Assembly (NCBI RefSeq): GCF_016903815.1
Contig: NZ_CP069973.1
From: Escherichia coli
Lineage (GTDB): Bacteria; Pseudomonadota; Gammaproteobacteria; Enterobacterales; Enterobacteriaceae
Length of the DNA: 64,000 nucleotides
Strand: one strand, 5' to 3'
The notes beneath the pieces were generated by a model. It did no database searches. It was given only the letters and a program-made list of their open reading frames with translations, and had not been told where the DNA came from. Shown here piece after piece: positions 50,364 through 64,000 of the stretch. Each line of letters begins with the position of its first letter. Positions within the stretch are counted from its first letter, which is position 1. The position numbers were made by a program, and so were the translations under genes.

Positions 50364-50477
50364 CGCCTTTACTCCCTGTTAGTTGTTATTTATTGCCAAT
50401 GCTGAAAGTGGGTTTTTCCCTCACTCTGGAAGCCGAGGGGCCGGGGTGAGGGTAATTGTTTGCACCGGCGCGACTCT

Positions 50478-50526
50478 GTTCCCCTCACCCTAACCCTCTC
50501 CCCAAAGGGGCGAGGGGACTGTCCGT
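50478..50526. repeat. GC-rich palindromic intergenic repeat (family not confidently assigned), copy 1, between eutH and eutG
   Basis: gttcccctcaccctaaccctctccccaaaggggcgaggggactgtccgt; about 94% identical to copy at 63871-63923; partial inverted copy at 50408-50445. Confidence 0.75.
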
Positions 50527-50532
50527 ACACTT

Positions 50533-51720
50533 TTATTGCGCCGCTGCGTACAGGCCGACAATCTGCTCCAGGCTGGCGGTACGCGGGTTGCTGCGCAGAC
50601 AAATATCTTCCAGCGCGGCCTGCGCCCATGCACCGTAATGCGCAGATGTCGCACCAATATCGCCCAGTCGTTTACCAATCCCGACTTCCGCAATCAGCTC
50701 ACTTACCGCGTTAATAGCGTCACGATCGTCGGATTTTTTAGTTCGCAGCGCCCGACCAATCTGACTAAAGCGTTCACGACAAACCATCCGGTTAAATTCC
50801 ATCACCGTTGGCAACAACATGGCGTTCGCCAGACCGTGCGGAATATGCAGCGCCGCCCCCGGCTGATGCGCCATCGCGTGGCATAACCCAAGCCCCGCAC
50901 TGGAAAACGCCATTCCCGCCATGCATGAAGCCAGCAACATGCTCTCGCGCGCGGCAAGGTCATGACCGTAGCCCACCGCTTTCGGCAGTGATTTACCAAT
51001 CATCGCGATTGCGCCAATCGCCAGACTGTCGGTAAACGGTGTGGCGTTCAGCGCGCTGTACGCTTCAATAGCATGGGTTAACGCGTCGATACCGGTCATC
51101 GCCGTGACATGCGACGGCACGCCTTCGGTCAGCGCAGCGTCGAGAATCGCCACATCCGGCATCAGCGAGGCGTGGGCTAACACCTGCTTGCGCCCGCTCA
51201 CCGCGTCGATAATCACCGTTACGTTGGTGGTTTCAGAACCGGTTCCGGCGGTCGTTGGAATGGCAATCAACGGCAGGCGCGGTTGCAGAACGCTGGTTTC
51301 TGACATTTCTGCCAGCGTGCTATCCGGGTTTGTCACCAGCAACGCCACGGCTTTCGCCGCATCCAGCACCGAGCCGCCGCCAAACGCGATCACCCCGTCA
51401 CAACCTGATTCACGCAACTGCGCCACGGCTGCACACACGTCGGTGATGCACGGTTCGCCCACCGGACATGGCCAGAGCGTCATGGCGATACCTTTAACGG
51501 CCAGGCTACGCGTCAGCCCGGCGGTCATCCCCGCCTGATGCAAAAAGCTGTCTGCCATCACGAACAGATGTTTCAGCCCACGCGTTTGCGCTTGCTGCCC
51601 GCAACTGCTCATCGCGCCCGGACCGCAAAGCGTCACCGGTGGAACGCTAAATGTTTTTACCCGTTGCAGATTCAGGGTATCGAACGCCTGAAAGAGCGCG
51701 GTCTGCAATTCATTTTGCAT
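50533..51720 (-). CDS. eutG: iron-containing alcohol dehydrogenase EutG
   Basis: 395-aa ORF; Fe-ADH family. Confidence 0.95.
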   Translation of the reverse strand: MQNELQTALFQAFDTLNLQRVKTFSVPPVTLCGPGAMSSCGQQAQTRGLKHLFVMADSFLHQAGMTAGLTRSLAVKGIAMTLWPCPVGEPCITDVCAAVAQLRESGCDGVIAFGGGSVLDAAKAVALLVTNPDSTLAEMSETSVLQPRLPLIAIPTTAGTGSETTNVTVIIDAVSGRKQVLAHASLMPDVAILDAALTEGVPSHVTAMTGIDALTHAIEAYSALNATPFTDSLAIGAIAMIGKSLPKAVGYGHDLAARESMLLASCMAGMAFSSAGLGLCHAMAHQPGAALHIPHGLANAMLLPTVMEFNRMVCRERFSQIGRALRTKKSDDRDAINAVSELIAEVGIGKRLGDIGATSAHYGAWAQAALEDICLRSNPRTASLEQIVGLYAAAQ

Positions 51721-52546
51721 AGATCCCCTCCGCTTTCTCTCGCCCGCTACTGGCGATCGCCAGCGGGGTCATAAACAAACTGTGCTGCGGTAAATGCACC
51801 TGTAACGCCGGGAATTGTTTGCAAAACAGTTCCGCAACGCCCGGTTGCATACAGGAGCCGCCCGCCAGCCATAAATCAGTAATGCCCTGCCCTTCAATAT
51901 GCCGGGCGACAATGTCCGCCATTTTTTCGTACACCGGTTTCACCGCGGGCCAAATCTCTTCACCGTGACCGCGCTTGTACTGCTCCGCCTCTTCCAGCGA
52001 AATACGGCGATTTCCGGCGAGAGTCAGAGAGATATGATGTCCGCCGGTGGCTTCATCTGCCGAGTAAGTCACCTTGCCCTTTTTCACGATGGCAATGCCG
52101 GTGGTGCCGCCGCCGATATCCACTACACCGGCGTTGTCCAGTTGCAGCAGATCCGCGACTGCGGTTGGCTCATCCAGCACATGGCTCACTTCCAGCCCGG
52201 CAGACTCCAGCACGTTGATGGAAATACGCGGGTCCGTACCTGGAGGAAAAGAGGTCGCCGCATGGCTAAAACGGCGACCGAATTGCTGCTCGAGGGTGTC
52301 GAGATGGCGACGAACAATGGTGACCGCACCGAAGAAATCCCAGACGATGCCGTCGCGGACCACATCAGCCCAGTCGAGGCATACCGCCACCGGCTGACCG
52401 TCGCGGTCAACAACCATCGACACCACATCGCAGGTGCCCAGATCCACCCCCAGCCACAGCGGAGATTCCGTCGCGGCAGGCGTCTGGTTACACAGCGTTG
52501 CTGCTATGTGCAGACGTGGGGTGAGCCATTGTTCGTCGTGCGCCAT
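51710..52546 (-). CDS. eutJ: putative chaperonin EutJ (DnaK/actin-like ATPase fold)
   Basis: 278-aa ORF; ASKHA phosphate motifs (VDLGTCD, VVDIGGGTTG). Confidence 0.95.
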   Translation of the reverse strand: MAHDEQWLTPRLHIAATLCNQTPAATESPLWLGVDLGTCDVVSMVVDRDGQPVAVCLDWADVVRDGIVWDFFGAVTIVRRHLDTLEQQFGRRFSHAATSFPPGTDPRISINVLESAGLEVSHVLDEPTAVADLLQLDNAGVVDIGGGTTGIAIVKKGKVTYSADEATGGHHISLTLAGNRRISLEEAEQYKRGHGEEIWPAVKPVYEKMADIVARHIEGQGITDLWLAGGSCMQPGVAELFCKQFPALQVHLPQHSLFMTPLAIASSGREKAEGIYAK

Positions 52547-52556
52547 CTGTTACTCC

Positions 52557-53960
52557 TTAAACAATGCGAAACGCATCGACTAATACACAGCGACGCAGAC
52601 GGACAAACGTCCGCGCGCTGGTTACCCCTTCACCGGTTGGCGTGGTGATGGTCATGGTGGTCCAGCCTTCCCCGCCCAGCCCCAGCCCGGCAATACACGG
52701 TCCGTTCTTAACGAAAATGCTGGTATCAATGGCATTCGCCATCTGGTTCATGTTTTCGATGTTGCGCGAGTGCATTGCCGCCGTGTGATGGCAACCGCCT
52801 TCCAGTTTCACCGCCAGCGCAATGGCATCCGCCACGTTGGCGACGCGCACGACGGGCAGCACCGGCATCATCAGTTCAGTCACAGCAAACGGATGTTCTG
52901 CGGTGGTTTCTACAAACAGCAGTCGCGTTTGTTCCGGAACTTTAAGGCCGATTGCCGCCGCGATTTTCGCCGCATCGCGACCAACCCAGTCACGGCTGAC
53001 GGTGCCTTTTCCGCGCTCGTCGATATTTTTCAGCAACACCGGTTGCAGCTGCTGCGCCTGCTCTGCGGTCAGTTTCACCGCGTGCTGGCCTTCCATCAGA
53101 CGCATCAGTTCATCGGCTACGCTATCCACAACAATCAGTACCTTTTCGTCGGCACAAATGATGTTGTTATCGAAAGACGCGCCTTTGACGATGGACTGAG
53201 CAGCACGGGCGAGGTCAGCGGTTTCATCCACCACTACCGGCGGGTTGCCAGCGCCTGCGGCAATCAGACGTTTATTGGTGTGTTTACGCGCCGCTTCTAC
53301 TACCGCTTCGCCGCCGGTCACCACCAGCAGGCCGATGCCCGGAAACTTGAACAAACGTTGAGCGGTTTCGATATCCGGATTTGCCACAGTAACCAGTAAG
53401 TTTTCCGGCCCGCCTGCGGCAACAATCGCCTGGTTGAGCAGCGTAATCGCCCGCTGGGAGACTTTTTTCGCCGCCGGATGCGGGGCAAAAATGACGCTGT
53501 TGCCCGCGGCAATCAGGCTTATGGCGTTATTAATTACGGTTGCCGCCGGGTTGGTGGACGGAGTTACCGAAGCCACCACGCCCCAGGGCGCGTTTTCAAT
53601 TAAAGTCAGGCCGTTGTCGCCAGTCAGCACCTGCGGAGAGAGGCACTCAACGCCCGGTGTGCCGCGCGCCTGAGCAACGTTTTTGGCAAATTTATCTTCG
53701 ACGCGGCCCATGCCGGTTTCACTGACGGCAAGCTCCGCTAAATCTCTGGCGTGTTTTTCGCCTGCTTCACGAATGGCAGCAATGGCTAACTGGCGCATTG
53801 CCACGCTCTTTAACCCTTGCTGGGCAATTTTGGCTGCCGCAACGGCGTCATCCAGGGACGCGAAAACGCCCATCTCATGAACGGCGGCGGGCGGCGTATC
53901 ACTGCTTTGCATTTTCAGCAGTACCGCTTTCACCACCTGTTCAATATCCTGTTGATTCAT
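52557..53960 (-). CDS. eutE: CoA-acylating acetaldehyde dehydrogenase EutE
   Basis: 467-aa ORF; aldehyde dehydrogenase family with N-terminal encapsulation-type helix. Confidence 0.96.
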   Translation of the reverse strand: MNQQDIEQVVKAVLLKMQSSDTPPAAVHEMGVFASLDDAVAAAKIAQQGLKSVAMRQLAIAAIREAGEKHARDLAELAVSETGMGRVEDKFAKNVAQARGTPGVECLSPQVLTGDNGLTLIENAPWGVVASVTPSTNPAATVINNAISLIAAGNSVIFAPHPAAKKVSQRAITLLNQAIVAAGGPENLLVTVANPDIETAQRLFKFPGIGLLVVTGGEAVVEAARKHTNKRLIAAGAGNPPVVVDETADLARAAQSIVKGASFDNNIICADEKVLIVVDSVADELMRLMEGQHAVKLTAEQAQQLQPVLLKNIDERGKGTVSRDWVGRDAAKIAAAIGLKVPEQTRLLFVETTAEHPFAVTELMMPVLPVVRVANVADAIALAVKLEGGCHHTAAMHSRNIENMNQMANAIDTSIFVKNGPCIAGLGLGGEGWTTMTITTPTGEGVTSARTFVRLRRCVLVDAFRIV

Positions 53961-61844: not shown

Positions 61845-63848
61845 ATGTCCCGAAAAGACCTTGCCAATGCGATTCGCGCACTCAGTATGGATGCGGTACA
61901 AAAAGCCAATTCTGGTCATCCCGGCGCGCCGATGGGCATGGCTGATATTGCCGAAGTGCTGTGGAACGATTTTCTTAAACATAACCCCACCGACCCAACC
62001 TGGTATGATCGCGACCGCTTTATTCTTTCCAACGGCCACGCGTCGATGCTGCTCTACAGTTTGCTACATCTGACCGGTTACGACCTGCCGCTGGAAGAGC
62101 TGAAGAACTTCCGTCAGTTGCATTCAAAAACCCCAGGTCACCCGGAGATTGGCTATACGCCAGGTGTTGAAACCACCACCGGTCCACTTGGACAAGGTTT
62201 GGCGAACGCCGTCGGACTGGCGATAGCAGCGCGTACACTGGCGGCGCAGTTTAACCAGCCGGATCATGAAATTGTCGATCACTTCACCTATGTGTTTATG
62301 GGCGACGGTTGCCTGATGGAAGGTATTTCCCACGAAGTCTGTTCGCTGGCGGGCACGCTGGGACTGGGCAAGCTGATTGGTTTTTACGATCACAACGGTA
62401 TTTCCATCGACGGTGAAACCGAAGGCTGGTTTACCGACGATACAGCAAAACGTTTTGAAGCCTATCACTGGCATGTGATCCATGAAATCGACGGTCACGA
62501 TCCGCAGGCGGTGAAGAAAGCGATCCTTGAAGCGCAAAGCGTGAAAGATAAGCCGTCGCTGATTATCTGCCGCACAGTAATTGGCTTTGGTTCGCCGAAT
62601 AAAGCAGGTAAGGAAGAGGCGCACGGCGCACCGCTGGGGGAAGAAGAAGTGGCGCTGGCACGGCAAAAACTGGGCTGGCACCATCCGCCATTTGAGATCC
62701 CTAAAGAGATTTATCACGCCTGGGATGCCCGCGAAAAAGGCGAAAAAGCGCAGCAGAGCTGGAATGAGAAGTTTGCCGCCTATAAAAAGGCCCATCCGCA
62801 ACTGGCAGAAGAGTTTACCCGTCGGATGAGCGGCGGTTTGCCGAAGGACTGGGAGAAAACGACTCAGAAATATATCAATGAATTACAGGCAAATCCGGCG
62901 AAAATCGCTACCCGTAAGGCTTCGCAAAATACGCTTAACGCTTACGGGCCGATGCTGCCTGAGTTGCTCGGCGGTTCGGCGGATCTGGCTCCCAGCAACC
63001 TGACCATCTGGAAAGGTTCTGTTTCGCTGAAGGAAGATCCGGCGGGCAACTACATTCACTACGGGGTGCGTGAATTTGGCATGACCGCTATCGCCAACGG
63101 CATCGCGCACCACGGCGGCTTTGTGCCGTATACCGCGACGTTCCTGATGTTTGTTGAATACGCCCGTAACGCCGCGCGGATGGCGGCACTAATGAAAGCG
63201 CGGCAGATTATGGTTTATACCCACGACTCAATTGGTCTGGGCGAAGATGGTCCTACGCACCAGGCTGTTGAGCAACTGGCCAGTCTGCGCTTAACGCCAA
63301 ATTTCAGCACCTGGCGACCGTGCGATCAGGTGGAAGCAGCGGTGGGCTGGAAGCTGGCCGTTGAGCGCCACAACGGACCGACGGCACTGATCCTCTCCAG
63401 GCAGAATCTGGCCCAGGTGGAACGTACGCCGGATCAGGTTAAAGAGATTGCTCGTGGCGGTTATGTACTGAAAGACAGCGGCGGTAAGCCAGATATTATT
63501 TTGATTGCCACCGGTTCAGAGATGGAAATCACCCTGCAAGCGGCAGAGAAATTAGCGGGAGAAGGTCGCAATGTACGCGTAGTTTCCCTGCCCTCGACCG
63601 ATATTTTCGACGCCCAGGATGAGGAATATCGCGAGTCGGTGTTGCCTTCTAACGTTGCGGCTCGCGTGGCGGTGGAAGCAGGCATCGCCGATTACTGGTA
63701 CAAATATGTTGGTCTGAAAGGGGCAATTGTCGGGATGACCGGCTATGGGGAATCTGCTCCGGCAGATAAGCTGTTCCCGTTCTTTGGCTTTACCGCCGAG
63801 AATATTGTGGCAAAAGCGCATAAGGTGCTGGGAGTGAAAGGTGCCTGA
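61845..63848 (+). CDS. tktB: transketolase 2
   Basis: ORF 61782-63848; likely start [40 protein letters not shown], 667 aa; overlaps/abuts talA. Confidence 0.97.
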
Positions 63849-63870
63849 TGGTGATCGCCGGATGCTGTAT

Positions 63871-63923
63871 GTTCCCCTCACCCTAACCCTCTCCCCAGAG
63901 GGGCGAGGGGACAGTCCGTGCGC
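63871..63923. repeat. GC-rich palindromic intergenic repeat, copy 2, downstream of tktB
   Basis: gttcccctcaccctaaccctctccccagaggggcgaggggacagtccgtgcgc; same family as 50478-50526. Confidence 0.75.
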
Positions 63924-64000
63924 TTTTTAGGGGCGCATCTGGGATTTTGTTTAACGGGTGATCCACAACGTGGGCCAGGCGTCTGGCCCATGCCAGTTAT

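Follow-up and report, generated by a model that had tools for sequence, protein, structure and literature searches.

The repeat first named BoxC, later the PIT (potential intrastrand triplex) element and then TMECO (Bergler 1992; Hoyne et al. 2000; Holder et al. 2015, PMC4666352), is described by the TMECO consensus 5'-CCCTCNCCC-N3-6-GGGNGAGGG-N3-GGGNGAGGG[G/T/C/-]-3' (PMC4666352). Paired motifs always join a type A motif (TTA) with an inverted type B motif (CCG), and CD, NMR and melting data on type A 'mm' oligonucleotides describe an intrastrand purine-motif triplex (PMC4666352). TMECO motifs have also been associated with intergenic rearrangement, their loci being more rearranged than controls (PMC4666352). 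As summarised in the same paper, Hoyne & Maher (2002) tested PIT/BoxC elements and detected neither promoter nor terminator activity, nor any effect on RNA polymerase.

The REP/BIME sequences offer the second comparison, and they share with the element described here its site in the genome, an organisation as GC-rich imperfect palindromes in inverted pairs, transcription within an operon and polymorphism between strains. Documented roles of REP/BIME are mRNA stabilisation, partial termination and the binding of IHF or gyrase, in contrast to the outcome of the BoxC tests. Within operons, REP arrays can be partial Rho-dependent terminators as well as stabilisers of the upstream mRNA (bioRxiv 10.64898/2026.03.23.713779).

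The window analysed here is a stretch of 64,000 nucleotides of Escherichia coli DNA that includes part of the eut operon. The names eutH and eutG are taken from the RefSeq annotation of strain 7/2, which is colinear with and 100% identical to the window at both of the loci considered. The features of the eutG-eutH junction are as follows.

49137 to 50363, minus strand: open reading frame of eutH.
50364 to 50532, minus strand: eutG-eutH intercistronic spacer of 169 bp, transcribed from eutG towards eutH.
50364 to 50395, minus strand: 32 nt common to all E. coli spacer alleles compared, in the eut sense CAATAAATAACAACTAACAGGGAGTAAAGGCG.
50371 to 50376, minus strand: Shine-Dalgarno sequence of eutH, GGGAGU, inside the shared 32 nt.
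50412 to 50532: composite BoxC element of about 120 bp, adjoining the eutG stop codon, in the order left flank GTTTTT, B arm, linker, A arm, right flank GACTGTCCGTACACTT.
50418 to 50452, plus strand: decayed type-B arm with a CCG second loop, CCCTCACTCTGGAAGCCGAGGGGCCGGGGTGAGGG, inverted relative to the A arm.
50428 to 50433, minus strand: GCUUCC within the decayed B arm, predicted partner of the eutH Shine-Dalgarno sequence.
50453 to 50480: 28-nt linker of the two arms, kept in K-12 BoxC pairs, with a small palindrome GCACCGGCGCG at its centre.
50481 to 50516, minus strand: intact BoxC/PIT/TMECO motif of type A 'mm', 36 nt, CCCTCGCCCCTTTGGGGAGAGGGTTAGGGTGAGGGG, an exact consensus match.
50533 to 51720, minus strand: open reading frame of eutG.

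An earlier note on this DNA had reported a GC-rich palindromic repeat in the 169-bp spacer, and the repeat is real. The gene order given there, eutH-eutG, has to be reversed: the genes lie on the minus strand and the order is eutG, spacer, eutH, and therefore the element would separate eutS..eutG from eutH..eutR instead of uncoupling eutG-eutR. Elsewhere in the same operon eutB (46364-47725) directly abuts eutA (47737-49140), and this strain lacks the CPZ-55 cryptic prophage, which adjoins eutA in K-12 MG1655.

By its sequence the eutG-eutH palindrome is an ordinary member of the BoxC (PIT/TMECO) family of E. coli. The consensus is matched exactly at 50482-50516 and again at 63875-63909, both on the minus strand, and the A arm of the eut copy, with its TTA loop, is identical at 36 of 36 positions to K-12 TMECO nos 7, 11 and 15. 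Along its entire length the composite can be aligned with four K-12 A+B pairs, those at ygfF-gcvP, alx-sstT, fepB-entC and hrpB-mrcB, at a mean column identity of 79%, and the linkers of the K-12 pairs measure 26-27 nt against 28 nt in the eut composite. The pair also obeys the A+B rule, with a B arm on the plus strand (50418-50452), the linker, and an A arm on the minus strand (50481-50516). In strain LF82, TMECO no. 265 (NC_011993 2553920-2553885), which has the same sequence as the eut A arm, maps exactly to window positions 50516-50481. Holder et al. (2015, PMC4666352) list this motif in their Supplementary Table S8, and the eut BoxC locus is thus already catalogued, though not discussed there as a eut feature. 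The consensus match, the composite alignment and the catalogue entry agree, and the family label that the earlier note had offered tentatively, boxC-like, was right.

Members of this family are common. Of 5426 complete E. coli genomes, 5396 gave BLAST matches; the median genome has about 15 detectable places (range 1-26), and only 26 of 71,321 places were plasmid-borne. Both copies in the window are intergenic, and K-12 has no BoxC at eutG-eutH or at tktB-ypfG. The counting of copies and the family assignment had been proposed in the earlier note as a check, and they place the element among the common named repeats, which its author had set down in advance as part of what would speak against the proposal. 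The eut copy therefore shares with described BoxC/PIT/TMECO elements the exact consensus, the type-A TTA loop, the inverted A+B arrangement with a linker of about 27 nt, an intergenic position, a multicopy habit and a strain-variable locus. Like the K-12 copy at pstA-pstB, it lies inside an operon. It differs in having a decayed B arm, the first hairpin of which carries the usual loop in reverse complement.

The earlier note had recognised the B arm as a partial inverted copy; this was correct, but it lies at 50418-50452 and not at 50408-50445. The arm fails the TMECO consensus even when four substitutions are allowed. It aligns to K-12 B arms, and inverted repeats are also detected there. By hand comparison, its first hairpin has five core mismatches to the alx-sstT B arm of K-12, and the loop of this hairpin (50418-50440) reads TGGAA whereas canonical B arms read TTCCA, its reverse complement. 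This suggests that the first hairpin was flipped, as by a template-switch inversion, and acquired further substitutions: an inverted canonical hairpin would account for the loop and one variable position, leaving about five changes.

The linker was also considered as a leftover BIME inter-unit linker (AATTGCACCGCGCCACTG vs AATTGTTTGCACCGGCGCGACTCTG). This is ruled out because BoxC pairs at unrelated loci of K-12 have kept this linker too. No REP consensus palindrome (the GCCGGATGCGRCG...CGYCTTATCCGGCCTAC type, in alternating orientation) was found in the window spacer, and at 50396-50403 there is at most a doubtful REP remnant of 8-10 nt, GCCAATGC. An Rfam scan of 49000-52000 at E <= 10 returned only unrelated eukaryotic and archaeal families, the best with E = 0.17-10 and far below gathering thresholds.

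A second copy downstream of tktB had likewise been reported, and is present:

63874 to 63909, minus strand: single type-A BoxC/TMECO motif, CCCTCGCCCCTCTGGGGAGAGGGTTAGGGTGAGGGG, a consensus match.

The 39-mer quoted in the earlier note sits at 50481-50519, inside the interval of 50478-50526 that had been given for it, and recurs at 63874-63912 with one mismatch; in 100 of 100 dinucleotide-preserving shuffles of the window it had no match. The two copies are highly similar, as stated, although the identity over the 53 nt originally compared is 92.5% and not 94% (it is 96% over 49 nt). The tktB-ypfG copy starts 23 nt past the tktB stop codon (63846-63848), within the region 63849-63950 that separates the convergent genes tktB and ypfG, the 3' end of the latter lying at about 63951. 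Its conserved BoxC flank reaches to about 63928. Its motif has the sequence of K-12 TMECO nos 9, 16, 19 and 22, and BoxC occupies this place in 832 of the 5426 complete E. coli genomes. A scan of 63600-64000 found no terminator-like site, and a promoter scan likewise found nothing in the element. In K-12 and APEC 102026 the same place holds a REP. Since other strains have REP or BIME sequences at the eut junction as well, BoxC takes the place of REP at both loci of the window.

The spacer allele of the window is a minority form, found in 305 of the 5426 complete E. coli genomes (about 5.6%). Among the BoxC-lacking remainder (about 94%) six other alleles were read for content, and these included the following.

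99 bp, allele of O157:H7: decayed REPs.
116 bp: one BIME unit (two inverted REPs).
216 bp, K-12 included: two tandem 100-bp BIME units.
316 bp: three tandem 100-bp BIME units.
516 bp: five tandem 100-bp BIME units.

All that the alleles read have in common is the 32 nt beside eutH, with its ribosome-binding site. The BoxC element itself has no sequence homology to REP and, unlike the BIME alleles, no tandem expansion of a 100-bp unit. When eutG-eutH junctions from 50 other enterobacterial genomes were compared, spacers ranged from 27 to 578 bp, and such REPs as they held were typical of the species. Several Citrobacter genomes, Yokenella and one Pluralibacter genome have a spacer of 27-32 nt without a repeat; S. 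enterica diarizonae and C. sedlakii have one REP, many Citrobacter have two, and Klebsiella has genus-specific REPs. The other Escherichia species sampled have REP or BIME sequences at the junction, up to 578 bp or about six units. BoxC was absent from the junctions of all 50 genomes, and from all 337 kb of eut regions searched; the comparison with Salmonella spacing that the earlier note had proposed thus shows, in S. enterica diarizonae, the single REP and no BoxC. Because outgroup junctions carry REPs or nothing, and never BoxC, in Escherichia the BIME is on this comparison older, and the BoxC allele is derived and has replaced it. To judge from the alleles read, the eutG-eutH spacer is a landing site for repeats, occupied by nothing, by a REP, by one to six BIME units or by a BoxC pair. 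Among the papers searched, none joined eutG, eutH and 'repetitive extragenic'.

How the BoxC allele came to be distributed as it is can be approached from its flanks. Between the window, ST70 and the B2 strain LF82 there is not one difference in the 169 bp of the spacer (100% identity). Over the same comparison (50165-50762) the flanking eutG and eutH coding sequence differs from the window at 15 sites in LF82 and at 6 in ST70, or by up to 3.5%. In LF82 a cluster of five SNPs lies at 50545-50559, just 13-27 nt from the edge of the spacer. A flanking haplotype common to the strains with the BoxC allele was looked for and does not exist, and 264 records of the composite are at least 99% identical. 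Identity of the spacer across divergent backgrounds is what a single origin and later short-tract recombination would give; it could also reflect constraint instead of recent spread. No donor locus with the same decayed B arm was found: where more than 60% of the composite could be aligned, other places in the sampled genomes reached about 88% identity at most. Neither a target-site duplication nor an intermediate allele was seen at eut, and no direct repeats flank the eut or the tktB copy.

Other BoxC copies were informative about the behaviour of the family. In K-12, homology with about 40% of E. coli genomes breaks off at the copies at fabI-ycjD and ygfF-gcvP, and these copies therefore mark the borders of variable segments. 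The pstA-pstB intercistronic spacer of K-12 (NC_000913 3908260-3908760) contains a BIME and a type-A BoxC, and in roughly half of evenly sampled genomes exactly 92 bp are missing from it. An 8-bp direct repeat, AACCGTGT, lies on both sides of this indel, with a third copy just past the motif and the BIME 15 bp away. The direct repeat could be a target-site duplication or could reflect deletion between short repeats, and a literature search on the pstA-pstB BoxC gave nothing useful. The observations at the borders and at pstA-pstB are in line with the link between TMECO and intergenic rearrangement in the literature, and are compatible both with transposition-like insertion and with short-repeat deletion.

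Folding and transcription signals of the spacer were also considered. Hairpins are predicted at -26 kcal/mol for a 61-nt segment and at -57 kcal/mol for the spacer, with z-scores of -1.9 and -1.3 against composition-matched shuffles. The predicted hairpins are stable in absolute terms, but they are only modestly better than shuffles and not exceptional for their composition; the suggestion that both copies fold into GC-rich hairpins stands as a prediction with this qualification. The element resembles a Rho-independent terminator in presenting a GC-rich stem-loop 3' of a stop codon, but differs in that no U-run follows the hairpins in the eut sense, and a consensus scan for a hairpin with a T-run found no terminator-like site in 50364-50532 on either strand. 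No sigma-70-like promoter was found in the spacer on either strand. The role of partial terminator or processing site that had been proposed for the element consequently finds no support in the sequence and, for the family, is contradicted by the published tests as they are summarised. Nothing observed points to control of the operon by the element. The content of the spacer is not conserved: most E. coli are without the BoxC allele, and some related genera have a bare junction. The only terminator-like flag was raised, on both strands, by a perfect palindrome, CATCATGATGTACATGATG, at 50328-50346 in the 5' coding region of eutH; it probably reflects the Met/Ile-rich N-terminus of the protein (MYIMMFFM) and not a signal.

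The best reading overall, and one that we consider probable, is that the resident BIME gave way to a BoxC composite on a single occasion, after which homologous recombination over short tracts carried the allele from lineage to lineage. As BoxC copies elsewhere lie at breakpoints of strain-variable segments, the replacement would likely have been a recombination or insertion event in DNA rich in repeats. The element would be co-transcribed passively with the eut operon and would fold into stable G-C hairpins, having no dedicated regulatory role and at most the generic effect of a structured spacer, as a barrier to 3'-exonucleases or through a modest change in downstream expression. A dedicated role is argued against by the lack of a terminator or promoter site and of an Rfam match, by unremarkable folds, by the negative published tests and by the existence of related bacteria with a bare 27-nt junction.

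It might instead be proposed that the G-rich strand, when single-stranded, forms an intrastrand triplex (or G-quadruplex), stalls polymerases and provokes recombination, so that the spacer is a hotspot of instability and this is its only 'function'. The G-rich strand of the type-A motif is the eut sense strand, and a regex search places a G4-type motif at 50481-50503 inside the type-A arm. The eut A arm shares its sequence with motifs of a type that forms a triplex in vitro, and TMECO loci are, as noted, more rearranged than controls (PMC4666352); both loci of the window are polymorphic and K-12 copies lie at the borders of variable segments. In vivo DMS footprinting, however, gave no support for a stable triplex (PMC4666352). 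The eut spacer is equally polymorphic in strains that have only BIMEs (1-6 units), so instability need not stem from BoxC, and the BoxC allele is remarkably uniform. We regard this explanation as unlikely, though it retains some weight. The only other G-quadruplex-type motif in the window is GGGCTGGGGCTGGGCGGGG at 52670-52688 on the minus strand, the eut sense strand, inside an open reading frame at 52557..53960.

The main rival to passive co-transcription gives the BoxC pair the function of the BIME that it replaced. As an equivalent RNA module it would shield the eutS-eutG transcript upstream of it against 3'->5' decay, or partly attenuate transcription into eutH-eutR (for example through Rho, over an untranslated gap of 169 nt), or both, and so set the ratio of upstream to downstream expression. 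By analogy, a pair of GC-rich hairpins could behave like REP arrays, and REP325 in yjdMN is reported to act in this way (bioRxiv 10.64898/2026.03.23.713779). The predicted energy of the spacer, set beside -47.5 kcal/mol for the 116-nt BIME allele, and the presence of a structured repeat of some sort in every Escherichia spacer read would also suit such a function. Against it, a hairpin with a U-run is absent from the spacer, the published tests as summarised are without terminator or promoter activity or an effect on RNA polymerase, and the fold z-scores are unremarkable. Several Citrobacter, Yokenella and Pluralibacter genomes, moreover, run the same operon with a 27-32-nt spacer, and the alternative BIME varies in its number of units with no sign of an optimum. 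Overall this seems to us quite improbable.

A joint reading would have BoxC composites as non-autonomous elements which are, or recently were, mobile and which land in or beside REP/BIME DNA; the eut allele would then be an insertion with replacement, spread by recombination, with a B arm that possibly gates eutH translation. It draws on the occupation of REP sites at both loci, on the 92-bp variant of pstA-pstB near a BIME with its 8-bp repeat, and on the identity of the eut spacer across haplotypes. Bachellier and colleagues are said to have reported, in 1997, boxC insertions in BIME regions of natural isolates. In its composite of about 120 bp, its inverted arms, its non-coding and multicopy nature and the variant at pstA-pstB, BoxC is similar to MITEs. 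It is unlike them in showing no target-site duplication at eut or tktB and no enrichment on plasmids, and BoxC has no known cognate transposase. This combination of events appears to us unlikely.

The translational part of that proposal can be taken separately. GCUUCC in the decayed B arm is modelled as an anti-Shine-Dalgarno sequence that pairs with GGGAGU and would lower or gate translation of the EutH permease. The ViennaRNA partition function gives this helix a probability of about 0.9, and the probability that the Shine-Dalgarno sequence is unpaired is 0.05 in the BoxC allele as against 0.46-0.59 in four BIME/REP alleles, rising to 0.45 when a consensus B arm is restored in silico. The invariance of a spacer with this decayed arm across divergent backgrounds would also be in keeping with it. 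The prediction is nevertheless a thermodynamic one on an isolated 249-nt fragment, which ignores co-transcriptional folding and ribosome or helicase activity, and the helix is just 6 bp long with one G-U pair included; the 27-nt spacer of C. braakii is also low in Shine-Dalgarno accessibility (0.24). We think such gating very unlikely. A chance GC-rich palindrome outside any repeat family, for which the modest fold z-scores alone might speak, is already refuted by the absence of matches in the shuffles, the exact consensus, the thousands of genomic copies and the catalogue entry.

With passive co-transcription of the BoxC pair as the preferred reading, the value of the finding is mainly one of annotation, in that the gap in the eut operon holds a catalogued repeat and not a new regulator. 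A modest addition is to see the eutG-eutH junction as a slot in which the repeats are polymorphic. The eut operon is important in colonising the gut and for the pathogenic strain LF82, in which the BoxC allele is present. If anti-Shine-Dalgarno gating by the variant B arm were true, it would amount to a strain-specific tuning of ethanolamine uptake. The repeat slot also bears on whether REP/BIME copy number tunes the ratio of the microcompartment and enzyme genes to eutH-eutR, and the locus is a natural experiment that makes a good test bed for the effects of BoxC and of REP/BIME on transcripts.
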